DNA of 63,140 nt, the filler included, from Craspedostauros australis (Eukaryota): the NCBI GenBank assembly GCA_030167865.1. It is 11 parts of 11 records of this genome, joined end to end, with 100 filler letters (N's around TTAATTAATTAA, not from the genome) between each part and the next. Parts side by side here need not be neighbours in the genome. Positions count along the whole stretch, not along the records: positions 61,124 to 63,140 come from JALAGF010002436.1; 10 more parts are not named here. One strand, given 5' to 3'. Each line of letters begins with the position of its first letter. The first letter of the stretch is position 1. Shown piece after piece: positions 46,264 through 63,140 of the stretch. The translations under genes were made by a program, and so were the position numbers. Below the pieces are notes generated by a model. It did not search any database. It was not told the DNA's origin and saw nothing but the letters and a program-made list of their open reading frames with translations.

Positions 46264-48705
46264 GGTTGCGGTATTATGCGTGTGTGTATGTGTGCGTGTG
46301 TACTATGCTCGTCTGGAAGCGTCCTCAACGCAACGCAACGTAATGCAGCCAGTCTCTTTGCACTTGCGCTTCACTGATGTGCTCCGTGTTGGTGCTCTTT
46401 GATGCAGAATGGTCTCTATTGCGTGCACTATGGCTCTCACGAGGAGTTCGCCTCTCGCCAAATTCTTTGGCTTGGAAACGCAACCAGACGAAGTCGATTG
46501 AGGAGAGGGGTTCAGGTCGATTGCTGTGTTCGAGTTGGTTCCTTGAACAGGGTGTGGTGCGGGCGTTTCGCAACTGCAATGCAGAAGTAACCGTGTGTTA
46601 TGCGCTGGTCTGCGTGTGCGATGATGTCCAAAAGGTGAAGTGACGTGAATCTGAGGCTGCGAATGTCAACGGTTGTCAACGGTGTTTTTACAGATTGCTT
46701 GAGCGACAAGACTCGAGGAGTGAGATGAGGACTGTGATAGCGTGGAAGGTGTGTGGTCGCAGTGATGATGTGCCAGTGTTACGATGAGTACCTGTGCACG
46801 CTTCGGCTCGCTCTTGGGTGTTGTTTGTGATCGTAAATGACCGTCTTGCGATGGACTTCAGGGTGTGTGTGAGGCGCTGTTGCTCTTCTTGCTTGGATGA
46901 AGAGTGGCTGTCGAGTGGTCTGCGTCGCAATTGATGTGGAGGATGCAGAGAGGGGTCTGATGCTGTTGGTGTTGGGTTGGTCAGGGGCAACGAACACAAC
47001 TGGCGCCGATCCGATCAAGAGGAAGAGCTTTTTCTGTTTTGTGACTGATGGAGGCGGCAAAACGGAACCAATTCGAGTCCTTTCTCTTCGCCTTGTCTTG
47101 CTTGACTTTGGTTTGCTTCGTGTTTGTGTAGATGCGAGACTGATGCAGAGATCGTTCCAACAACCTCTCGTTGATGGCAGACGTCGCAGGAAATGCGCGA
47201 TCACTTCTGGAGATGCTGCAACCAACAATTCAAACACAGAGAGATCCGAGTCTCCGAGTGCAGGGGAGGACTTGATTGTCGTTTTGGTTCCCTTGGCCGC
47301 ATGTATTGGAATGGGAGTGCAATGGTTGCTTTTGCGTGTTGCCTTGTGCTGTGCTCTCGTTGGTTCCACTTTGTGCGTTGTGTCGGAAGATGCGTGACGG
47401 GATTTTTGGCCGTGACCTTCCTGTGCCGCGGTTTCTCGACATCGTTTTGAACGACTAAATTCGGTGGTCCCACTGCCGTTTTCGTCTTGCTTACTACCTC
47501 CAGGTCGCAGTTGATGCACTCACGATAACACTAGTTGTGGAGTTTTGGCCCCTTGTTGTCACTGGTTTGCTTGCTTTTGGGAGAAACGGCGATTGGATAT
47601 TTAGAGCTATTGTGTGTTTGCTCTCGCTGATCCGTCTTCTACGTCACAGGGAACGTATTCCACGTCATGAAAAACGAGTCACAACAGAGGAAGAGACATC
47701 GTGTGACTCTTCCTCCGCAAGACAAGATGATGACTGCGCGCGGCGACAACAGAATGTGCCAGGCCAGGACAGCCAACAACACTCCANNNNNNNNNNNNNN
47801 NNNNNNNNNNNNNNNNNNNNNNNNNNNNNNTTAATTAATTAANNNNNNNNNNNNNNNNNNNNNNNNNNNNNNNNNNNNNNNNNNNNAAGAACAGCAAAGG
47901 GTTAAATTGGATCGATGTAGTCGGTAGAAGACGGCCGAGTCCCTAAAGCAGTCTAAAAATGCGCACATTGTCGGGTCCATAAAACTTAAAATAGGATCTA
48001 TCTCAAAAATGTAATGGTTAATTATTTATAAAGAGAGGTAGGAGAATACGAATATGTACGTTGTTTGGATATCTGAGACAAAAGTTCTGGAGTCCCGTAA
48101 CAAAGTGCAGGTCGACTCACTAAGTGGGGTCATAGAGCGGCGCCCGCAAAAGACCCAAATCTTTTGTGCACGCACTGCGAACACGTAACGAGAGTTTTCA
48201 CCCAGGCATTGCGCCACGGTTTCTCTCATGCTTTTACGACACCCTTCTCGTGTCGCACACTCTTCTCTTTTCTCAACGCGCCTCGTTTCATCGCCCAGCT
48301 GTGTTTGTACGCAAGTACAATTGCACCACCAGATTGCTTGAGTTTATCAGCTATATCCATTGGTCAGAGAACGGAGACAAGGCATGCAACGAGTTGAAGA
48401 CAAGAGGTTGGAGTCGTTTGCACTACGCTCTGCCTGTTGCTTCTGTGTACGGTCACAGAGCGCTGCACGACGCATCGATGAGCATGCCACAGGACACTGT
48501 GGAGAGAGAAAGCAACCTGACCATTTGGAACAGCCAAAGAGTCAGATGGTCCGAAGACCAGACAAGCAAAGACGACGGACAGCACATCAATCAACGCAAT
48601 AACCATTGAGCAGAACCATCATGGCAGCGGATGGAGCTACAATGCACAGGTTGTTCCCCAGGATTGGGTTCAATGCTGGTGCAGCAAACATGCTGTTCCA
48701 TGACC

Positions 48706-48735
48706 AAATAAATAAATAAATAAATAAATAAATAA
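48706..48735 (-). repeat. (TTTA)7 simple-repeat 3' tail of the LINE
   Basis: (aaat)7aa on the + strand, ~150 nt beyond the element's stop codon. Confidence 0.85.
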
Positions 48736-48886
48736 CGCAAAGATTAGATTACCACTGTGGCATCGGCGCCGTAGGCGCTTTTCTCCGCCTCCTTTAATCT
48801 TCCCGCCAGGCGGGAAGGGAGCACGGACTCGACGTTGCTGTGTGTATATGTATGTAGGCCCCAGCGAGAAGGTGGATCCGCCGCCG

Positions 48887-51800
48887 CTAATCGTTTGGTT
48901 GGTCTGGTTGGACTTGCTGCTTGTACCGTAGCCAGCGACTCAGCGTGCCATGGGCAGCTGGTTTGCCAAGCAGCCGAGCAGCTTGCTCCAGCCATACAGC
49001 GATCTGCGGTACCGACGCGCTCGCCCCTGGGGAGGTGTCGACGATTCGTTGGTTGCTATCTGGGGACTCCTCGAGGCACTGCCGAATTGAAGCTACACGT
49101 GTTCGCAGCGCTTGCTCCATTTCGGCGTCGGCCGAGTCGTCTTGATGGAATAATGCGTCGTTCCGCACCTGCCATTGCTCCCATGCTATTTTCCATATTC
49201 GCCGCACCAATTGGATGGACCACTTTTTGGCCATCTTTCTCGTGTCTTGTTGCTCCAGAAAGGCCTCCTGCAGCGCGTGCCATTCTGCGGACAGCAAACC
49301 CTTCCGAAGGGCCATGCGTCCCACTGTCGCCTGACTCTGAGTGGCAGACCTCATTGCAACACTCATGCCTGTCGGCTGCAGCAACACCGTGCCGCTGACT
49401 TGGCTGCGAAGTGTCGAGGTGACGGCTTGCGTCACTCCCGGGCTGGTGGGGTATCGCTGCATCCAACTCCGGATATCCTCGACGTGTCGGCTGGCCGCTT
49501 GGACTCTCACGGGATCTTTGCATTCCCAGAAGTGCGCGCTGCTCTCCGGTTCCCCACAATTGGGACACTTATCGGAGTCGCGCAGGCCCCATTGCTTCAT
49601 GCGTTGGCCTGTCGCTGCCTCTCCTGTCACTAGCTTGAAAGTGAAAATGCGCTTGGTGTGATCTAGAGACCGGAGCCCTCCTGCGACCGCGTCCCAGTGG
49701 ACTTGATCCCCTTGGTCAACGACTTTCCGTGCTGTCAGGGTTTCGATCGCCGCGCCTGCAGTGGATCTCCCAAAGATGCTGTCATACCTAATCGTCGTCA
49801 ATTTGCCCCTGCTGTGGATGGAAACCCGCTCCCTGTGGATTGCTCCGCCATAGACGCATGCTTCCGGAAGAGACACGCGCGCCGAGCCCGCCAGTTTGTC
49901 TGCCTCAATATTGAACTTCGCCCAATCGTCAAGGGTTGTCCATTCCGCGGCATCGTCTTGGTGCCCTTTCACATGCTTCCCTGTGACTTCAATTGGAAGG
50001 CCTTGGCTGAGGTTTCGAACCGCCCTCTGCAGATCCGCGTCGGTGGATCTCGGGGACAGATGCCAGTCGCCATCGAGCGCCTTCAGCGCGCTTAGATTGT
50101 CACATCCCAAAGTCATCGAGCCCTGCCTTACACTGCATGCTTCGCAGACAGCTTCGATGAGTACGAACACTCCGTAGATTCCAGCGAGCTCCGCCCGGTG
50201 GGACTGCATGACCTCATTAGTCGCTGGGGTCCGGTTGGCGAGCCATTGCCTCGCCTCTTCGCCCCGGTGGCTGGCATGAATGACTGCGCCTGCTGCGCCA
50301 CACCCGTCTGCTACGGATCCATCGCTGCACGCCATGAGTGTACCGCATCGCAGAGAGTGGGAGATGGTATCGACTTCACCCACCATATCATGAACTTGCA
50401 TCGCCCATGACTTGGATGGCGGCATCGCGTTAATGAGGGCATCGAGCTGCTTCACTGGAGGAGTGTGTGGCGGAATTGCTGGACCCGAGTCGACGACCAT
50501 GATTCTTCCCTGGGATAGGTACCCATCGACCATCTCTTGGCCTGGACTGATGGCGCCGTCAGCTGTTTCATACTGCCGTTGCCGTCGGCGTCTGGGCATC
50601 CGGCGAAAGTGTTGATCGGGATGCAAAGAATGGAACAGTCGATCCTCGTGAACACTTCGAAAGACCAAGGGCCTCATCGACAAGAACCTCCTCCAGCTTC
50701 CCAGAGGTCGCTCCAACGTGATAGCGCTTGTTCGAGATGCCAGGAAACACTGGCTGATCACCTGTCTCCATTGTCGCCACCTCGCCAAACTGATGTCACC
50801 CATCGCTGGCCACTTCATGACCGATTGTCTGAGTTGCGTTGGCTCGGGCCCGAGCACATTGGGGACCAGGGCATCTCCTGTGGCATTCACGATGTCTGAC
50901 AACCAAAATACCTGTTTCTTTTGCCTGCACAAATTCACTGCTCGCAGCATCGACTTGGGCAGCCCCAGCTTCATCACTAGATCCATAACCGGAACGTCGT
51001 GCTGTCGCGGTGGTGTGACGATGGGTGTCTCGTACCGTATCTGGATTGCTGCTCCATGAGCTTCGCCCCACACCGACTTCATCCAGGACTCCTCGGCAAG
51101 CGAGCCCCATTTGTCGATGACCATCTCCATCACTCTTGGAATTCCTACCTGGAGTGTGAGGATCTCGACCTGCGTTCGTAGCAGCCTTCCGGTGAGCGAG
51201 GGCGTCTGCCAGTGCCGGACGATTGCCTCGATGCGTCAAACTGTTTGCGTGTTGTAGAGGTGCGGCACTCCAAGACCTAGACCTTGGGGCGCCCCGAACA
51301 CCAGTGCCCTGGAGACGTTGCGCTGTATGCCTGATGCGGGCAGAGCAGCTTGGAGTATTGGCCGCATGATGCGCTCCGCCGCCGCCTTGGAGAAGGTGGA
51401 ACTCAGAAGGGGATATTCAATCGTTTTCCATATGGTTGCCTTCATCGCGATCCACGCGTGCATGCGCAGTAGTTTCCCTCGCCGCATTTTATCTGCCCAT
51501 TGTTGTGCCTTCCCGGTGTAGTACGCCTCGTTGCTTTCTTGGTTGCCATCGTGCCTTACCATGACCCCCAGTGCCTTTCGGGCCTGGTCGACATGCAGTC
51601 GCTGCAGTTGTGATTTGTTGTTGCTGTCCGGTTGTCTGATGCTGATTTCTCCTGGTTGTTCCTCCACTGTTTTGTAACGCCATCGCTCCCCATCCCAACT
51701 GAATGCCATTAGATACCAATAGCTTTTCCTTGGTTCGAGAGCACCACCGGTCGCCCGGAGCATTCCCTCCCATGAATCCACCACTGCCTGGACCTCTGCA

Positions 51801-54800
51801 ACGCATGCATTTGGATCAGACGCGTCGCTTCGGACCGAGTGGATCAGATCCGTGTCGTCGACAAAGGAAAAACATACCAGCCATGTTGTTGTTCTTGAGA
51901 TCGGACTAGTGGCCCTGAAACCATATCCTTGCCTTTGCATGGCCTGCATGAGCGGGGAACTCATCGCCACCCATCCAGCGGGGGATATACCGAGTCCTTG
52001 GAGCAACCCCTGGAGCTTGGTGCCTTTGGTGGGATACGTTCGCAGCGATCGCCCAAAGCTTGTGAGGACGTGATGTTTCATTTTTTCAACCGCGTCGGTC
52101 ACGCTGTGGCTGATCCATGATGGGACTCCGATTCGGCTCATACTCATTCGTAGTGGGTTGTGCGCCATTCTGTCGTAGCAACTCTTGGCATCGTTGGAGC
52201 ATATGGCGCTGGTGGTTCCCGTGATGCGGACGATATCATCAATCATGCGGTTGTTGAGGCTGACTTCCGCCACACTTCGCTGTTTTCGGCTACCGTATTG
52301 TTCCTCTGGAAGCATGTCATGTTGCTCCGCATGTCGCATCATGATCTTGCCCACCCATTTTAGGTTTGCGTTGAAATCTCCTTCTACCAAGCTTATGGTT
52401 CGGAACCGTGTCACCCTGTAGTTTCCGGGTTCTTTGAGCAACGTCACATCCTCACAGCGTAACCACCTTTGCAGGTTGTACCCCGTTCGGAGAGAAATTT
52501 CTCGCATTACCGCGTCCACTTCCGCCAGGTGATCATCCTTCGTGTTGGCCTTCCAGAGGCCAAAGTGCAGTCCTGACGGCCCCGACGTGGTGCGTTCTCG
52601 GGCTTTGGACCACAATGCCTGGTGGCTCTCCACGGTGATTCGTAGAAACTCGGCTGTCCATGGGACTGGATGCCCGGACAGAAGTTGATCCATCAGCATG
52701 TCGTCATATGGGCCAAACTTGTGCTGGTGCCGCTGGCGGGCCTGCGCTGCCCCTTGCTGTCGTACGTCCTGTTCGAATCTCCGTTCTTGTAGCGGCGTTT
52801 TGTAGGCCTGCCTGTGTTTGGCTTCGTTGGCCTTCATACATTGCTTTATCACGGCCTGCTCAGTGTCGAATACTTCTTCCTCGCCGCTTTCGTTCGTTGC
52901 GATGACCATTGCCACCTTACCGTTGGCGTCGTAGCTGCCTGTCACCCTGCGGATGGCCTGGAACGTTTGCACCACCTCCTCTCGCTTGACGATGTTGGAT
53001 AGTGCCGCGGCCACTGTTATCTTGCCTGCGCGAGCTACTTCTTTGGCCCTTTCCTCCAGAAACGTTTTCCGGTATTCCGCCGCGTTGCGTTTGGCGTTCT
53101 TCCAGAGCTGATGTGCCCGTTTGCGCCGCTCTTGTATTTCTTCCGTGGATAGTGTCGCGGTGCGTATGCTCAGGTTTGCCTTCTTTTTTGCTCGATTGTA
53201 CCACCTGGAACTCACGTTCTTGCCTTGGCGCTTCTTCCATGCCAGATCCCAGAATTGCTTCTCCATTGCTTTGCGTTTTATCTCGGGAGAGAATGGGACG
53301 TTTCCCAGGAATATTCGCCGCGCTCTTTTCTCGGCATTCAGCATCATGTGTGCCCTGTCTGCATCAATGGATTCCGCCTCCGCGACTTGCTCCTCTGTGA
53401 GGCGCACTCCTGCTTCCGTCGCCTGCCGCAGGTTTTGCACTCTCTGTCCTATTTGTTTGGCACGGTATTGCTTGCGTAGTTGCTCCTGGTAGCGAGTCAC
53501 CGTGTTGGGCCTGTTGAGCTGCACTCGGCGCCCGCTGAATGTCGGCGTGGGTTTTCTTTGCGTGCCGAAGATGGACTCCGACGTGACCTCCACCCATGCG
53601 GTGCGGTGATCCCACGGCCCGAATGCGCTGTAGCCTGCCCGTACGATGTTCAATGACTCTGACACCCATATGCCGTCGATGACCCGATCAGATTGCGCCC
53701 TGATGTTGGTGGACATGCCTGGAGCATTGGGGTGTCGGCTCAATATCGCCTCCTTCATGCCCTGGCATCGCCTCATCTCTGCCATTTGAGACCTGTCGAC
53801 TGGCATGTTGATATCGCTGCCGATCACGATGGTCTCTCCCGCGCGTTTCCATTCCTGCAGAGCCTCCTCGAGGTCCTGTATGAGTTGCTTGATTGGTGGT
53901 GTGTTGTTGCCTTGTGATTCCAGCCACGATGCCTGCTGATTGTAAACCGTGCCTGCACTTTTGCCGCCTTTTGATGGGACATAAACGCTGACCATTCGCA
54001 CTGTCGTGCCTTGCTTCCCTCGCATGGTGAGGCTGGCCCATCTACCCAATCGCTTCGGATCCGTCTCTTGCGCCGTGACTCTGCCTGATGAGTGTCCCGT
54101 CATTGTGCATGCCGTGTCTCCCCACTGTCGTCGACTCCCGTATTGTTCGTGCTCATTGTAGGAGAGAGCATGTCTTTTGGTGTGCATGTGCTGCTTCGCT
54201 TCCGCGTTCCAAGACGTGGTTCCTCCCATCTTCGACCAGTTGATGCCTATTTCTGATAGGAGTGTCACATCAATCTTCATCTGCAGAATCCATTGCCACA
54301 TGTCTCGGTTTTTCCAATGGTTGGACTCGCTTTGGAGACATCCCACATTGAGGGCTGCTATTCTCAATATCGAGTGGCCCTTCGTCGCCGTGGAGTCTCC
54401 CCAATGCTTGTCCTGGAGGTTTTGCCCATCCTGGCGCGTCCCCTCCGGGGTTGCATCCATTTGGCTTGCGGGGGTGGTTGACAATGCTTCGCCTGCCCCC
54501 AGCTGTGCATTATTCATTGGTGGCGCCCCCTTCTTTGCTTGAGTCGGGGGAGCCAAGCCGGACGCCTGTATTTGGGCGCGCAGCGCTGCGATGATAGAAT
54601 CCTTGCTGGCGATCTCGTTCGACTGTTCTTGCACTCTCTTACGATTGCGTTCCGCCTCTTGGTCTTTCCTTGCTTCTCTCATGACTGCCTCCAGTTTGTT
54701 TTCGATTTCCTCTGCCTCCGTCTGTGAGTCTGGTTGGGTGTATCGTGACGATGCTGCTGATTTGCCAAGTTCAGTTGTGAACGTGTAAACCGACTCATCC

Positions 54801-56503
54801 TCTAGCCTTGGTTTCTTTCTCCTTGGCGAGGACTCTTGGTCGTCGTCCATCATTCCCATGCCGTCGATTTGCACTTCTCCGAAGCCTTCATCGAGCAGGA
54901 AGTCCATCTCCAGCTCCATCTCGGCATCAACGTAGTCTCCGCTATCGTCTTTCTGCATGAGACAGCTCATCTCGACGATGTCATCGGAGAACCACGTGTT
55001 GGTTGATGCGTTGATCTCTGTGGCACATCGGACGGCGATGGTGTGTATGATCCCGACTGCTTCCGGGAAACGCTCACCGAACGCGACGATGTGTATGGCA
55101 TCTTCTTTTCCATCTGCCATGTGCGTTGTGCTCACATCGTGGATGAGAGGACATCCCTCCTTGGTTTGCTTTGCTAGGAATTGTCGCAGAGTGATTTGTT
55201 TGGTCTCTGGATCTTTTTCGTCGAGCGAGAAGTCTCCCTTGAGTTGTTCGTACTTGAGTTGTCGCATGTAGCGCTGGTGTTTCTTGATCATGGCCTTTAC
55301 CTTGGTGGCGGTCTTTGCTCCCATGACGGATGTTCCCGGTTTGGGGACGTAGCGGTAGTTCAATCCCCCACGATGCGCGTCTTTTTTGTTGAAGATTTGG
55401 CCCAGCATTTTGGATGCCCGTCGAGCGTCTTTGACATCGGCGTGGATGTGCAGCGCCATCCAAGGCGCGTTGTACCAGCTTCCTCTGTTGGCTCTATGCT
55501 CGTCTTGAACGTCCTCCTGTACTTTTCCGATGAATTTGACTCTTCCTCCCACCTTGATCTTTGCTCTGCTTTCCGCCAGTAGTTGGTTGATGACTTTGAG
55601 AGTTTGCTTCGCCTTCGTGAAGTTTCCTGAGTATGCCATGAATCCGATTTCGGTGATGTGCTCCGCGTCCCTTAGGTCTTGGATGTAAGCATATTCTCCT
55701 TCTGTGTAGGATCCCTCCATCTTGTTGCTCCTGCTGGTGAAGACCTGCATGTCGACATTGGATGCCAGTAGAATCTGCATGTACACGTCCTCGCTCCTTG
55801 AGCTTGGATTTGCCTTTCCCAAATAGACTCTGAGGTCCTTCCATTGTGTTGGAACTCCTTCCGTTGTTGAGATGCATCCTTTCTTCTTGTTCTTCTTGTA
55901 CCATGGGCGTATGACGAGGCTCTTGTCCATTTCTTTGGCTTCCTCCCACCACTGTGCAAATCTTGCCTGAAAATCTCGGACTGGCGTGCGCGACCCTTTC
56001 GGGATCTTCAAGCGCATTTCAAATCTTTCGTAGTGGCGTTGCTTGATGTTGCCGATCTGCGTCTCCCTTGCCTCCACTGTCGTCCACCCTTGCTTCTTGG
56101 CGGCGTCCTCTCCCGGTTCCCCAGGAGCGTCTGGTTGGTTAGAGGCTTGATTGGGGTTGGGAAGTGCTGCCACTGCCGGGACTTTGGCTGTTTTGAGTCG
56201 CTTGGATTTGCCCTCCTTGACTGTGGTCGTGAAAGCCGTGAGATTCGATTGGCGCAGGGGTCGCTTAGTGATGAGCGCCTCGAGATCGTGGCTGCTGTCG
56301 TCGCTATCTTCCTCCATGGGCTCCGCCGCTGAGTCGACTTCTGGTGGGCTCAACTCTTTGGGATATTGGCTGCCCATGTAGTTGACTGTTGCTGCCCACA
56401 TGATTGTCATCTGATTTGCCATCGTCTTTTGGTGCTCCCCTTGTGTGTCGAGATGTACATGTGAGTATATGTCAAGATGTACGTGTATATGTGCATCGTT
56501 CAC
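48887..56503 (-). pseudogene. Single 2539-codon LINE reading frame interrupted by one in-frame TGA at 51236-51238
   Basis: Track ORFs 51236..56503 and 48887..51133 share a frame. The 34 codons between them are open (TQTV*RIEAIVRHWQTPSLTGRLLR...). Confidence 0.85.
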
Positions 56504-56626
56504 CCGTTATTCTCTCATACGCACTTNNNNNNNNNNNNNNNNNNNNNNNNNNNNNNNNNNNNNNNNNNNNTTAATTAATTAANNNNNNNNNNNNNNNNNN
56601 NNNNNNNNNNNNNNNNNNNNNNNNNN

Positions 56627-58211
56627 GTCACGCTTGCTTGGTTTGGTTGGTGGAGGTCTCGATTGTGTATCATGCGTAGATCTTGCTGGTGTGTTCGGAG
56701 GAGTGACACCTGTGTCATCGTCGGCTTCGTCGCCGGATGGTGGGATATCGTCATCCTCATGGTTGGACTCGCTCCGATCTTCATCGTCGTTATGAATTAG
56801 TTGAGTTACTGCTCCATCATCTTCATCATCCTCATCATCGCTGTCTGATAGGATGTGATATTTGTTCGTGTCAGCGAAAGATACTCTCTTTGCTTCTGAT
56901 GCTTGACGCGTTGCCGTCTTTGGCATTGCTCCCTTCCGTCCAATAGTTGTGAAGCCGTCTGCGTCCGTTGTTCCTGTTTCAATGGATATGTTCGGCGCTG
57001 GAGCCCAGCCGCAAAACTGTCCGTATGATTGGTTGAGCCACTTGATGTCGCAAGAACAGACCAGTGATTTGGTTGATGGTCTGTACATGTTGTAGACCCC
57101 TGATGCGTGTTGGTGTGCATATCCAATGAACACCCTCTCTTCTCCTCTGTTCTTGAGTTTGGCAGTGATCCCGCCATAGGTAGTCTTCACAACACCCACC
57201 TCTCCAAATGTGCGAAGTGCATCCGCATATGGTGGATCGTTGCCAAAGAATTGGCAATGTGGTGACTCCTTCTGGTTCTTCGCTACGGTGATGTTGGCGA
57301 TGGCGGTGGCAGTGCTNGCAGCTGCTGCCCACAGGCCATGCCTATACTCTTTGTTGAGCTGTGCTCCGTTGAGCATGGAGCGGATCTTGGTGTAGAGGTA
57401 CGCGAACTTGCGTTCCACTCTACTGTCCTGTTGCGGCGTGTTCGATGCCATGAACTCGAATTTCACGTTGAGTCCTGCATCGATGAGAATATCCTCCGTG
57501 GATTTGTTCTCTCCGCTGTTGTCACCTCAGAAGATGATCTGTTGGTCACCTGTCAGTGATTTGATCGTTTGCACAAATTGTTTGATGTATCCTGGTTGGT
57601 CACTCTTGTTCTTGAGAAAGAAACTCCAGCAGTGATCCGTGCAGTCGTCCACGATCAGGGTCCAGTAGCGTTTTTCTCCAAAGCCTATGTGTTTAGTGTA
57701 ACTAATGTCAATGAAGAGGCGTTCGCCACGGCGAGTTGCTCTTGGAATTGTCGCCTTCGAGATGTTCTTCACTCTAGCGTTCGCAACCACACAGTCGCGA
57801 CATACCGGCATCTCGCCAATGATCTTCCATCCGTACTGAGCGGCCGTCCGCTTTATGGTCTCGAGTGGCGCGTGGCCAAGCATTCGATGCAATTCCACCG
57901 CGCTCACCTCTTTGGATGGGCTCTTGACGATGGCTGTGCAAGCCTTATCGTCCTCAGTTGGCATGATGGGATGCATCTGCACTCCTGTGATGAATCTGTT
58001 GGAGGTGGGAAAGATCCAATCGAAGATGATCTTCTTCCCTGCTTTGTTGATGATGTCCATCAGAATGCCGTCGTTACCAATCTGGTAACCGTTGTACAGA
58101 GCCTTGTTCATAGAGAAAAGGTTCACCGTCATCTTGGGTGTGTACTTCACATCATCGAGCCAGATGGTGTGGCCAGTGTTGTCTTGTTGCTTGATCTGCA
58201 GTTTGATGGAG
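56627..58211 (-). mobile_element. Ty1/copia retrotransposon fragment (end of protease, HHCC pre-integrase, integrase core) inactivated by an in-frame TGA at 57527-57529
   Basis: DVKYTPKMTVNLFS, LHRMLGH...CRDC, LFIDIS, IVDDCT, F*GDNSGEN, TPQQDSRVERKF, LWAAA, LRTFG and FIGY. Both track ORFs are in one frame. Confidence 0.9.
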
Positions 58212-59585: not shown

Positions 59586-61023
59586 CGGAGAAGACGACAT
59601 CGACCCCAACTGGCATGACATCATCCGTTTCGAAAGCGATAACTACGCCGAAGACCACGATGAAGAAATCGACGGACCTCTGCCTGACGGAGATCCCGAA
59701 TTCATGACCGACAAAGAACGAGAAGAATGGAATCGCCAGCATCGCCCTGAACCACGCATGCCTCCGCTCATTCATCCGCCAGCAACAATCATCGGAAATG
59801 ACGATGACGGATTCGTCCCTCGCACATCACCCGATACAAGCATCCATGATCTACCGCCTGGCACCGAAGTGGACAGCGGCGACGACGACGACAACGCCGG
59901 CATACCACCACCAGATCCTTCCCTTGATGATGACAACAACACCGGCATGCCACAGCCAGAGCCACCAACGGTCGAAGACAACTCTCCAGTCAGACGATCT
60001 CGATCCGGACGACGCATTCGCAGACCCGCTCGCTACCGCCAGAACGAAGCAATCTCTCGCAACACCGTCTTTCATCGCATTCATACTCTCTGCCGCGGGC
60101 GCGGACCTCGACCACAGACGTCACCACTCTTCTTCCAAAACCTCAATTGGGACATCAACAACAACTTCGACATCCCAAGCCGCTACCAGATCCTACTGGA
60201 AGCGTCTACCAGTCCGACTCTCAATGAAATCTACGATATGGACCCTCTTATTCTCCAAGCCAAAGCGCACGACGACGATCATCCATCCCTTGCCGACGTC
60301 CTGAACTGCCCTGACCTAAACGAACGAGTCACATGGCGAAAAGCAATGAACGCTGAAATCGAACAGCTTCTCGACAAGAAGACATTCCGCGTGGTTCCTC
60401 GGTCAATGGCAATCAACCACAAAATCATCCCTTCAACCTGGGTCTTTCGTCGCAAGAGATTCCCAGATGGATCCATTATGAAGCTCAAAGCTCGTCTCTG
60501 CGTACGAGGAGACCAACAGCAACAAACAGGGCGAGACAGAAACGAAACGTTTGCTCCCGTTGTTGAATGGAGTTCCATACGTCTGATATTCGCACTGATG
60601 ATCGAACATGGACTGTACACTCAATCAATTGATTTCAAAAACGCATTTGTTCAATCTCATCTGCCTGCTCCCATCTACATGCTTCCTCCTCCTGGACCGA
60701 TTCCTATCAACAATCCAAACATTCCAGAGAAGGACCGCCCGATCCTACAAGTCAACAAGAGTCTTTATGGCGACCGAAGAGCACCACGCCTGTGGTACGA
60801 ACATCTTCGCGACGCCCTCATCAGCAACAAATTTGGATTCAGAATGGCCGAGCAAGATCCCTGTCTGTTCCTCAAGAGCAACATCATCATTTGCGTCTAC
60901 GTGGATGATGCAATCCTCTGTGGCACAACGATGGAAATCGTTCAATCGACTATCCAACAGCTGCATCAAGAAGGTTTTGACCTCACATGCGAAGGAGATC
61001 TCTCTGCATACCTCGGTATAAAG
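59586..61023 (+). mobile_element. Ty1/copia polyprotein fragment (linker plus RVT_2 reverse transcriptase), frame uninterrupted
   Basis: WRKAMNAEI, STWVFRRKR, LKARLCVRGDQQ, TFAPVV, DFKNAF, KSLYG, DPCLF and YVDD. Confidence 0.93.
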
Positions 61024-61123
61024 NNNNNNNNNNNNNNNNNNNNNNNNNNNNNNNNNNNNNNNNNNNNTTAATTAATTAANNNNNNNNNNNNNNNNNNNNN
61101 NNNNNNNNNNNNNNNNNNNNNNN

Positions 61124-63140
61124 AAGGACATCGTCATCGTCAACGGTGTCAACTACTATCCCCAAGACATCGAACACGCCGTCGAGGAGGCATCGTCCGC
61201 TGTCCGTCCAGGTTGCGTGGCCGCCTTCTCGTCCAACGATTCGGGCGACGATGGACAGCTGGAGATCGTCTTCGAGATCCGAGCTAGCCACGCGAAGGAT
61301 GCCGAGACGGTCTGCCAACAGGTCAGGAGGAACGTCATTTCACAGATCGGATTGACACCGGCAACAGTCGCAGCCGTGGAAGAGCGATCCATCTCCAAAA
61401 CGACGAGCGGAAAGATCCAGAGACGCCAAAATCGCCAGCGCCTCCATGAAGGAACGCAGAAGATGGTGCTGGATGTCATCGGAAAATCGAACTTCTTCAG
61501 TTCGCACGGCAGCAATCTTGCAAGTCAATCCAAGCGATTCTCGATGAGAAAGTCCATCATCGAGAACGTCAACATCGAAGAGATGGACTTCTATGACCTT
61601 GTGGAGAGCTGTACAGGAACTGAAGTCAACCCCGACGATGAGTGGAAGGATGTTGGATTGTCCTCCATGATGGAGCTGGAGCTCCGCCAGTCCCTTTCTG
61701 AGCGATACAACACGACCCTTCCCGCAAATATCATCCAGCTCTTTCCGAGAGTGATGGATCTCAAGACTTTCCTCGAGGCATCAAAGGGGGAGCCCCTACC
61801 AACCAACCTCCCAACCCTCAAGAGGATCCTCTCCATCCCGAATGAGAAGTTTCTGTCCCAATCGACAGTCGCTATCATCCAGGCCATCGGTGTGCTCGTC
61901 GCAGTCCTCATCTTCTCGCTCCCCATCGTCCCAGCGTACGAAGTTGGAAAATCCATCGCTGGCTCCGACGTCCTCTCCGGTCATGAATGGGTGCTGTTAC
62001 CATTGATCGTTCCAGTCTGGGCTATTGCGCTCACCTTCATGGTCATCCTCTCGAAGTGGATTGTCATTGGCAAATACACAGAAGGGTACGTCAATCAGAC
62101 CAACATCTATTTCATCAGATGGTGGTTCGTGGACAGGCTCGTGCATCTTTGGGAAAACTTCGTCGGACGCTTCATCGTGGGCACGCCTTTGATGACGTTG
62201 TTCTGCTACTTGATGGGCGCTGATGTTCATCGGTCTTGCAACATTTCCTCCTTCATTCGGGAGTTCGATCTGGCGAAGGTCGATGCCAATGCCTTGGTGT
62301 GCAAGCCAATCCGCTGTCGAATGTTCGGACCATGGAAAGATGAAGAAGGTCCCAGCTTGCGGTTCCGCAAGATCCAGGTGGGACCGAATGCCATGATCAT
62401 GGGAATTCTCAGCCCAGGCGTCAAGGTCGGTTCCAATTGCCATGTGCAGCACATTTCTGTGCTGGCTGAGGGCGCCCAAGCACCATCCAGCACTGTCATC
62501 AGAGGCAATCCTGGATATATCAAAAGCACAACATTTGCAACAGCAAAAGCGACATCGTCACAAAACAGCAACAGCGTCAGTGTTGACCGCGGTGATAGCG
62601 ACAGCTACCGTAACGGCGACGATCCGCAACAAGCAGTTGCAAGTACAGAGATCGACATAGACGAAAGCGCAATGTCAAGAAACGATGCCAGATGGATCAT
62701 CCTGGGTGGTATGAAGATGACATGGCTGCTTGTCGAGATATACATAACCTTCTGCTGCTTCCTGATTTCTAATATCTTGGTCCGAGATCATCTTCCAGAC
62801 TGGAGATATTCCAAACTGCAATATTGGATTATATCCATCGGTCTAACATCAGTACTGCTGATGATATCCAGCATCATGCTCAAGTGGGTGATGATCGGCA
62901 AGAAAAGGCCAGGCAAAGCGAGGGCGGGCATCTTGAGTGAATTCACTGATTGGGCATGCGACTACCACTTCAACCTGGCATGTCTGATGCTCGACGGACC
63001 GACGCACAATTCGATCATCTGGACTCTGGTCCAAATGGCTCATGGACTGGACATCGATCTGCGATCAAAAGTCTTCTGCGACAGCTTCCACCCATCGAAA
63101 GTCGACCTCATCACCATTCGACGATCCTTCGTTTCCAAGG
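61124..63140 (+). CDS. Partial NRPS-like multidomain protein: FAAL-type adenylation C-subdomain, carrier protein (ACP/PCP), and Pls/PosA-like TM plus left-handed beta-helix repeats
   Basis: Hand translation gives 672 open codons with both ends truncated. Motifs KDIVIVNGVNYYPQDIE...VRPGCVAAFS...SKTTSGKIQRR; DVGLSSMMELELRQSL; KWIVIGKYTEG...YFIRWWFVDRL...GTPLMTLFCYLMGADV; beta-helix-like IQVGPNAMI...PGVKVGSNCHV...RGNP; second repeat LKWVMIGKKRPG. Confidence 0.85.

Follow-up and report, generated by a model that had tools for sequence, protein, structure and literature searches.

What does a diatom make with a protein in which a fatty acyl-AMP ligase (FAAL) and an acyl carrier protein (ACP) are joined to a membrane domain of the Pls/PosA type? 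The question arises from a 672-codon open frame at one end of a 63,140-nucleotide window, the whole stretch of Craspedostauros australis DNA analysed (assembly GCA_030167865.1), which was originally predicted to encode a membrane enzyme that loads fatty acids and transfers or polymerises them. Here, we found that the view of a single enzyme was incomplete: the frame belongs to one of dozens of paralogues, with relatives in several eukaryotic groups.

An open frame cut at both ends

The window consists of eleven pieces of short contigs with artificial N-linker-N spacers between them, and adjacency across the spacers is meaningless. Its last piece is the whole of contig G000:C2436 (2,017 nt), the open frame of which runs off both ends (Table 1). 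As predicted, this frame is absent from the ORF track; it is hidden, however, only because contig truncation removed start and stop. Since the pieces are separate contigs, the fragment has no real gene neighbours within the window, and the window's gene context (a Copia-type RT at 59586-61023 and others) was rejected as a clue. By eye, two long adjacent ORFs of 1,756 and 782 aa on the minus strand (47887-56526) resemble a non-LTR retrotransposon, showing motifs of an endonuclease, RT and RNase H, and Copia-type integrase and RT fragments lie at 56627-58211 and 59586-61023 on separate small contigs.

The fragment comprises a FAAL C-terminal subdomain followed by a carrier domain; its remainder covers 1.5 repeats of a membrane domain of the Pls/PosA type. 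The acyl-AMP-ligase motifs named in the original prediction are all present. Its claim of at least two units of transmembrane (TM) hairpin and beta-helix holds for the hairpins, four hydrophobic segments forming two TM pairs, but the second unit ends where its beta-helix starts.

Table 1. Features of the fragment and its junctions (positions in the window; aa, residues of the fragment)
Feature	Position	Strand	Basis or remark
Artificial spacer	61024..61123		N runs flanking a 12-nt stop linker, joining unrelated contigs; non-biological
672-codon open frame, middle of a FAAL-ACP-Pls-like gene	61124..63139	+	Both ends cut by contig ends (contig 61124-63140)
FAAL C-terminal subdomain, aa 1-112, with YYPQDIE, RPGCVAAF, KTTSGK	61124..61459	+	Pfam, NCBIfam, motifs
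Motif positions	NYYPQDIE 61151-61174; RPGCVAAF 61205-61228; KTTSGKIQR 61397-61423; GLSS 61655-61666	+	
Acyl carrier domain, Pfam PP-binding aa 166-216	61619..61771	+	Pfam and paralogue model
Putative phosphopantetheine Ser, second S of GLSS	61664..61666	+	Conservation, 5hv8 alignment
TM pair 1, KWIVIG at its end	61850..62071	+	Hydrophobicity; helices in paralogue model
Repeat 1: core helices (RWWFVDR) and left-handed beta-helix (REFDL, CRMF, GNPG)	62072..62533	+	TIGR02353, aa 281-473
Mosaic junction	62114..62118	+	Subfamily C1858/C239 upstream, contig C2343 downstream
TM pair 2, KWVMIG at its end	62711..62899	+	Hydrophobicity
Repeat 2 start (DYHF, GLDID, RRSF), truncated	62900..63139	+	Contig end precedes repeat 3 and the conserved His

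The loader domain is of the FAAL type

The Pfam model AMP-dom_DIP2-like matched the fragment above its cut-off (aa 2-103, E 1.6e-7), FAAL families were the top NCBIfam matches to its N-terminal part, and the closest solved structures by sequence were FAALs (7R7F, E 4e-71, with a paralogue as query). Since the fragment holds only the C-terminal subdomain, FAAL core features were scored on paralogues; 92 family proteins were examined, 70 of which had a scorable FAAL motif. In the E. coli FAAL, CoA rejection is set by W224, M231, F279, P226 and the FAAL-specific helix (FSH); deletion of the FAAL insertion permits some acyl-CoA formation, yet the FSH and the bulky pocket residues outweigh the insertion (PMC8460268). 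These W/P/M/FSH/F elements recur at identical offsets in paralogue P0002. Among the scorable members, the FSH is present in 70/70, the Phe equivalent to F279 in 66/70 and a bulky residue at the M231 position in 67/70. The insertion, expected in the full gene, was found in the paralogues but is about 13-15 residues shorter than in bacterial FAALs (a 14-residue gap against 7R7F), with a spacing of ~60, which falls between the 72-78 of 37/44 bacterial FAALs and the 47-48 of 7 Pls A domains. From the conserved W/P/M/FSH/F elements, we infer that the FAAL domain would reject CoA.

Is the loader also distinct from the A domains of Pls? In PosA, the diamine-binding Glu of the A domain is part of Asp217/Glu221 (PMC10522769). 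In an IQ-TREE phylogeny of adenylation domains (a quick run with 54 rows, 11/65 having been dropped for motif failure), the family grouped with FAALs and was split from Pls A domains (SH-aLRT 100), lying inside an ochrophyte clade (96) with the Craspedostauros copies monophyletic (99). A Glu four residues past the Asp, the positions of which we take, from general ANL alignments, to be equivalent in both groups, occurs in 0/74 family FAAL domains versus 16/19 Pls-type A domains. Thus, with a loader that lacks this Glu and carries the FAAL features of CoA rejection, the family is not a Pls, and motifs, NCBIfam ranking and tree all bear out a FAAL-type loader rather than an amino-acid A domain.

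A carrier domain with a family-specific motif

Pfam PP-binding matched the fragment at 21.9 bits, against a cut-off of 20.8. The usual GxDS or GGHS is replaced by a family-specific G[LM][ST]S, in which the Asp or His before the Ser is missing. The second Ser of GLSS is invariant (53/53 diatom-clade sequences, 24/24 own copies) and aligns with the Ser of the PKS ACP 5hv8, and the ACP of a paralogue model superposed on ACP/PCP structures with Z up to 10.2 and an rmsd of 2.0 over 70 residues. Pfam, conservation and the model thus agree on a four-helix carrier fold with a conserved Ser. The carrier domain was predicted correctly; its putative phosphopantetheine site is here moved to the second Ser.

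A Pls/PosA-like membrane domain with a conserved His

Against the 423-bit cut-off of TIGR02353, the fragment scored 62 bits (E 3e-17) and a full domain 66 bits, and all 11 aligned members matched weakly. However, hhalign of profiles built from 53 diatom-clade and 11 Pls/PosA-type sequences aligned the two membrane domains end to end (probability 100%, E 3e-86, 730 columns, 17% identity), so that the predicted homology stands even though the family falls far below the cut-off.

An AlphaFold (AF2) paralogue model from 54 sequences (pLDDT 92, pTM 0.92) shows the ACP, three pairs of long helices and three repeats rich in beta structure, in agreement with the PosA model as described, i.e. six TM helices in three pairs and three beta-helices (PMC10522769). 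The first model (11 sequences, pLDDT 64) had given no fold match at E<=0.001. The Foldseek top matches were the beta-helix serine, maltose and galactoside acetyltransferases (E 5e-5), and the beta-helix structure 3ect superposed on the model with Z 8.0 and an rmsd of 3.4 over 149 residues; the wide structural search was dominated by ACP matches, and both the structure and the FAAL core are those of paralogues, not of the fragment. PDB searches found no solved Pls/PosA membrane-domain structure.

The alignment pairs H1408 of P0002, in repeat 3, with the His of the QTH motif found in Pls. This His is present in 49/53 diatom-clade, 34/38 other eukaryote-type, 2/2 PKS-terminal and 14/14 Pls-type sequences; it is found in 20/24 own copies, the other 4 being gapped at that column, and no His was seen at the equivalent column of repeats 1 or 2 in the aligned sequences. 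Pls-invariant residues of repeats 2 and 3 (RKW, EST, TEFD, FEDR) are not retained in the family. LpxA and LpxD use an acyl-ACP donor and a catalytic His (PMC6820557). Based on this analogy and on its conservation, the repeat-3 His is a candidate catalytic residue, on which the relevant parts of the cited papers contain no mutational data.

A multigene family in a eukaryotic genome

At least 66 matches to the fragment were found in its own genome (60 scored candidates), and 24 contigs, the fragment's included, span nearly all of it; short queries gave 42 matches for repeat 1 and 46 for repeat 3. Seven copies translate as single ORFs of 1,477-1,567 aa. The full-length layout is FAAL-ACP-3x(TM pair + left-handed beta-helix), which reproduces the Pls architecture of A-T-membrane terminal domain with three TM pairs. 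In the six full-length copies that were domain-scanned, AMP-binding, FAAL C-subdomain and carrier were followed by weak beta-helix matches, and tailoring domains were absent. The ACP-to-repeat-1 region, recovered from 30/40 copies examined, formed 28 clusters at 99% DNA identity, 20 at 97%, 15 at 95% and 11 at 90%, and these counts imply that alleles are insufficient to account for the copy number. Over 319 copy pairs, the median dN/dS of this region was 0.21 (range 0.07-0.42). Positive selection in the acyl pocket, sought by dN/dS among own copies, was not detected: the median was 0.17, with values up to 0.36 in one helix and a maximum of 0.47 in TM3. Some copies are broken, since a stop codon lies inside 2/66 matches. 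Copies L060 and L061 (G000:C6464, C6237) end within the FAAL C-subdomain, adjoin an ankyrin gene and are probably truncated pseudogenes.

The flanks of the paralogues are eukaryotic and differ from copy to copy (COG3, arrestin, DOCK DHR-2, Fea1, Copia elements); among the 66/98 flanking ORFs scanned, we found neither a shared biosynthetic neighbour nor a gene indicating the acceptor. The genome has two PPTase genes. An EntD/Sfp-like PPTase (ACPS + 4PPT_N; L070:5068-6717, G000:C1378) lies ~8-9 kb from one family copy only, and an alcohol acetyltransferase (L066:1143-3191) and an alpha/beta hydrolase (L016:471-1730) each adjoin one family copy only. A stand-alone FAAL (L065:4134-6050, G000:C3954) has a longer insertion and an ACP-like C-terminus, without the membrane domain. 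One run presumed to be RNA gave 7 short contigs, 6/7 less than 95% identical and paralogue-like, and was uninformative on expression.

Could the fragment be a bacterial contaminant or a non-functional repeat? Its bacterial-type domains, the absence of visible introns and the missing flanks of its contig would fit such an origin, the chance of which we nevertheless consider negligible. The paralogues sit among the eukaryotic genes named above, the own copies are monophyletic within the diatom/ochrophyte clade, the median dN/dS is 0.21, and an insensitive two-pattern scan of bacterial and archaeal genomes yielded 41 matches and 3 loci, all ordinary Pls-type. Given the low sensitivity of that scan, a FAAL-type form may nonetheless occur in bacteria. 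That the fragment belongs to a nuclear gene of a diatom-like eukaryote, as originally assumed, is thus supported.

Mosaic copies and segment swaps

The fragment's contig is a mosaic: its two parts match different paralogue subfamilies. Up to 62113 it belongs to subfamily C1858/C239 (93-98% DNA identity by region, about 95%), and from 62114 to 63140 it is 100% identical to contig C2343, which ends at the same base. At the junction, the longest exact match of C2343 to seven subfamily copies is 11-13 nt; an eighth copy, less closely related, shares 17 nt. Such lengths are small for a false join by an assembler, but the junction at 62114-62118 may still be an assembly artefact.

Similar exchanges are seen elsewhere. 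Copies C984 and C4387 share 99-100% identity over the membrane domain. In a segment that we take, from general FAAL structure, to be the acyl pocket, their identity drops to 72%, whereas its two flanks stand at 92% and 95%. The C984 segment matches C6246/C3820 at 93-94%, and the C984 ORF has no N gap. Like internal swaps occur in C1858/C5865 and C1625/C4432. We read these patterns as gene conversion, which would recombine acyl pockets with membrane domains among the paralogues.

Relatives in other eukaryotes

Is this architecture common outside Craspedostauros? At E<=0.001, a profile search returned 3,013 representatives, the best 150 of which were inspected; 307 passed at 1e-30. Named members of the family come from Seminavis, Chaetoceros, a chytrid, Salpingoeca, Chrysophaeum, Bigelowiella, Ectocarpus and Scytosiphon. 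Besides other diatoms, the groups represented include brown algae, pelagophytes, choanoflagellates and a chytrid. The top ESM Atlas cluster is 94% eukaryotic, with diatoms the majority. No plant homologue was recognised among the matches listed, and 71 pattern matches in viral contigs contained no relative. Database labels of family proteins read 'FadD21' or 'D-alanyl carrier protein ligase'.

In some variants, an FAD oxidoreductase is inserted after the FAAL and before the ACP (P0015, P0041, P0063, P0144); others have an added P450 (P0225, P0229). Two FAAL-primed PKSs, P0172, which has PKS ketoreductases, and P0133, end in a Pls-type membrane domain with the His kept; one is from the jakobid Stygiella, in which the domain sits where a release domain normally stands. 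The Pls-type domain of these two proteins is possibly an undescribed PKS release domain. In a FastTree phylogeny of 38 rows, 26 FAAL-linked membrane domains were split from 12 Pls-type ones (support 100), and the Stygiella PKS-terminal domain fell on the Pls-type side, with long branches that call for caution. Further fusions were observed: diatom-clade FAAL with type I PKS, type III PKS-like domain or P450 (P0201, P0228, P0225, P0229), and Pls-type proteins with a C-terminal PPTase or DUF418 domain (P0157, P0175).

In agreement with the original prediction that no product is described in diatoms, we found neither a FAAL-ACP-Pls-type family nor its product described in the open-access PMC and bioRxiv literature. 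No eukaryotes are reported to have more FAALs than diatoms, Seminavis having 16, and the relevant passages of that study mention only FAAL-PKS architectures (PMC12820801); a term search of the FAALPred supplements gave no match.

Clues to the role from Seminavis robusta

The Seminavis robusta family HOM02SEM000166, the assignment of which was seen for three genes and which may include other ligases, comprises 123 genes and is expanded and tandem-enriched (PMC7335047 source data). It is enriched among genes upregulated in decadienal, at 30 C and in Roseovarius exudate, and three members have a benthic signature (PMC7335047). Four of the 84 genes upregulated in both bacterial exudates are AMP-binding plus LpxA-like, with a log2 fold of 2.4-4.8; they were assigned by annotation rather than sequence. 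None of this architecture appears in the longer lists of Data_Sheet_7 and 8, and Data_Sheet_3 has one more (PMC6688387). All of these exudate and stress data are from another species than ours. With 123 such genes in what we take to be a total of 36,254, four among 84 would arise by chance with P about 2e-4.

Discussion

We propose, with a probability of roughly 0.55, that these proteins are membrane ACP-dependent acyltransferases that make an acylated compound by a single transfer to a separate acceptor. This proposal builds on the FAAL features of CoA rejection and the grouping with FAALs, the Pls/PosA alignment, the beta-helix fold matches and the conserved His, as well as on the LpxA/LpxD analogy, the terminal position in the Stygiella PKS, the dN/dS of 0.21 and the PPTases. 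Against it count that the sole characterised homologues are polymerases, that the insertion is short and the ACP motif atypical, and that no neighbouring gene hints at an acceptor. On this proposal, the FAAL domain would form a fatty acyl-AMP, rejecting CoA, and the acyl group would be loaded onto the phosphopantetheinylated Ser of the protein's own ACP, a self-loading suggested by the invariant Ser and the two PPTase genes. The three TM pairs would hold the three beta-helix repeats, predicted to be a fused pseudo-trimer of the LpxA/LpxD type, at the membrane face of the ACP. There, the repeat-3 His may act as a general base in one acyl transfer to an acceptor hydroxyl or amine, which would give an acylated lipid or small molecule. 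The paralogues, which differ in pocket and membrane domain and recombine, would probably yield a product series for the response to bacteria or oxylipin stress, judging from Seminavis.

Could the proteins instead join hydroxy- or amino-fatty acids head to tail, as a Pls-like polymerase making an estolide, polyester or polyamide? Every characterised homologue does polymerise (PMC10522769), the whole membrane domain and its His are common to the family and Pls, and the FAD oxidoreductase, P450 or PKS ketoreductases of some relatives could supply the hydroxyl. However, the own-genome copies seen carry no tailoring domain, RKW, EST, TEFD and FEDR of the Pls repeats are not kept, and the FAAL-linked membrane domains form a clade apart. 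As a plain fatty acid lacks a further nucleophile and none of the 74 family FAAL domains has the diamine-binding Glu, a single acyl transfer is likelier; we therefore regard polymerisation as unlikely, and of the original inference we retain the loading, carrier and membrane parts. It is distinctly improbable, in our judgement, that the membrane domain serves to release the acyl chain or to export it, by hydrolysis, cyclisation or trans-membrane hand-over: the terminal position in two PKSs and six TM helices that could make a conduit would fit, but the fold relatives are transferases, and a FAAL-ACP-domain protein that has no tailoring domain would run a futile cycle if it set the acid free. 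We give slighter credence still to a membrane-anchored acyl-CoA ligase or fatty-acid trap, in which CoA use would be restored and the ACP and beta-helix would be structural. The short insertion and non-canonical ACP motif, together with the acyl-CoA formed by insertion-deleted FAALs, point that way; yet the FSH and the bulky pocket residues, which weigh more than the insertion (PMC8460268), are intact, and distantly related eukaryotes keep both the ACP Ser and the repeat-3 His.

The Pls/PosA membrane domain has hitherto been examined only as a polymerase of diamino acids. That many eukaryotes combine it with FAALs and PKSs, and that one His is common to every form, suggests a general catalyst that consumes acyl-ACP, and this shared His offers a direct mutational test, for Pls as well. 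The family accounts for part of the unusually high FAAL count of diatoms (PMC12820801), and with a large stress- and bacteria-induced diatom gene family now named, its product can be sought. A bolder picture, which we hold to be doubtful, is that of widespread eukaryotic one-chain lipid assembly lines, in which the Pls-type domain would polymerise or condense oxidised fatty acids, and independently expanded families of benthic diatoms would swap acyl-pocket cassettes to give bacteria-induced acylated or polyester compounds for defence or surfaces.

How does the family compare with known systems? It is Pls-like in layout, lies outside Pls proper and shows most of the features of FAALs. With Pls/PosA (TIGR02353; PMC10522769) it has in common the loader-carrier-membrane order, six TM helices in three pairs, three beta-helices and the repeat-3 His; it differs in its FAAL loader without the diamine-binding Glu, in G[LM][ST]S instead of GGHS, in scores below the 423-bit cut-off, and in being a separate clade and a large multigene family in a eukaryote. 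The E. coli FAAL, FadD32 and the cyanobacterial 7R7F resemble it in the CoA-rejection residues, the FSH, the C-subdomain motifs and a fused ACP (PMC8460268, PMC12820801), whereas here the FAAL, with its shorter insertion, feeds a membrane beta-helix domain instead of a KS or C domain. The FAAL-like proteins of plants, which are fusions with HemY/catalase, are likewise uncharacterised eukaryotic multidomain FAALs (PMC8460268). LpxA, LpxD and other left-handed beta-helix acyltransferases have the same fold and threefold arrangement, and LpxA/LpxD an acyl-ACP donor and a His base such as we suppose here; unlike them, the family has three repeats in one chain, a six-TM anchor and one His in place of three equivalent sites. 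The closest parallel in another diatom is HOM02SEM000166, labelled only 'AMP-dependent synthetase/ligase' and without mention of Pls in the relevant passages of PMC7335047: it has the same architecture of AMP-binding, ACP and trimeric LpxA-like parts and a diatom expansion as well, but this tandem-enriched expansion is independent, the Craspedostauros copies forming a clade of their own.
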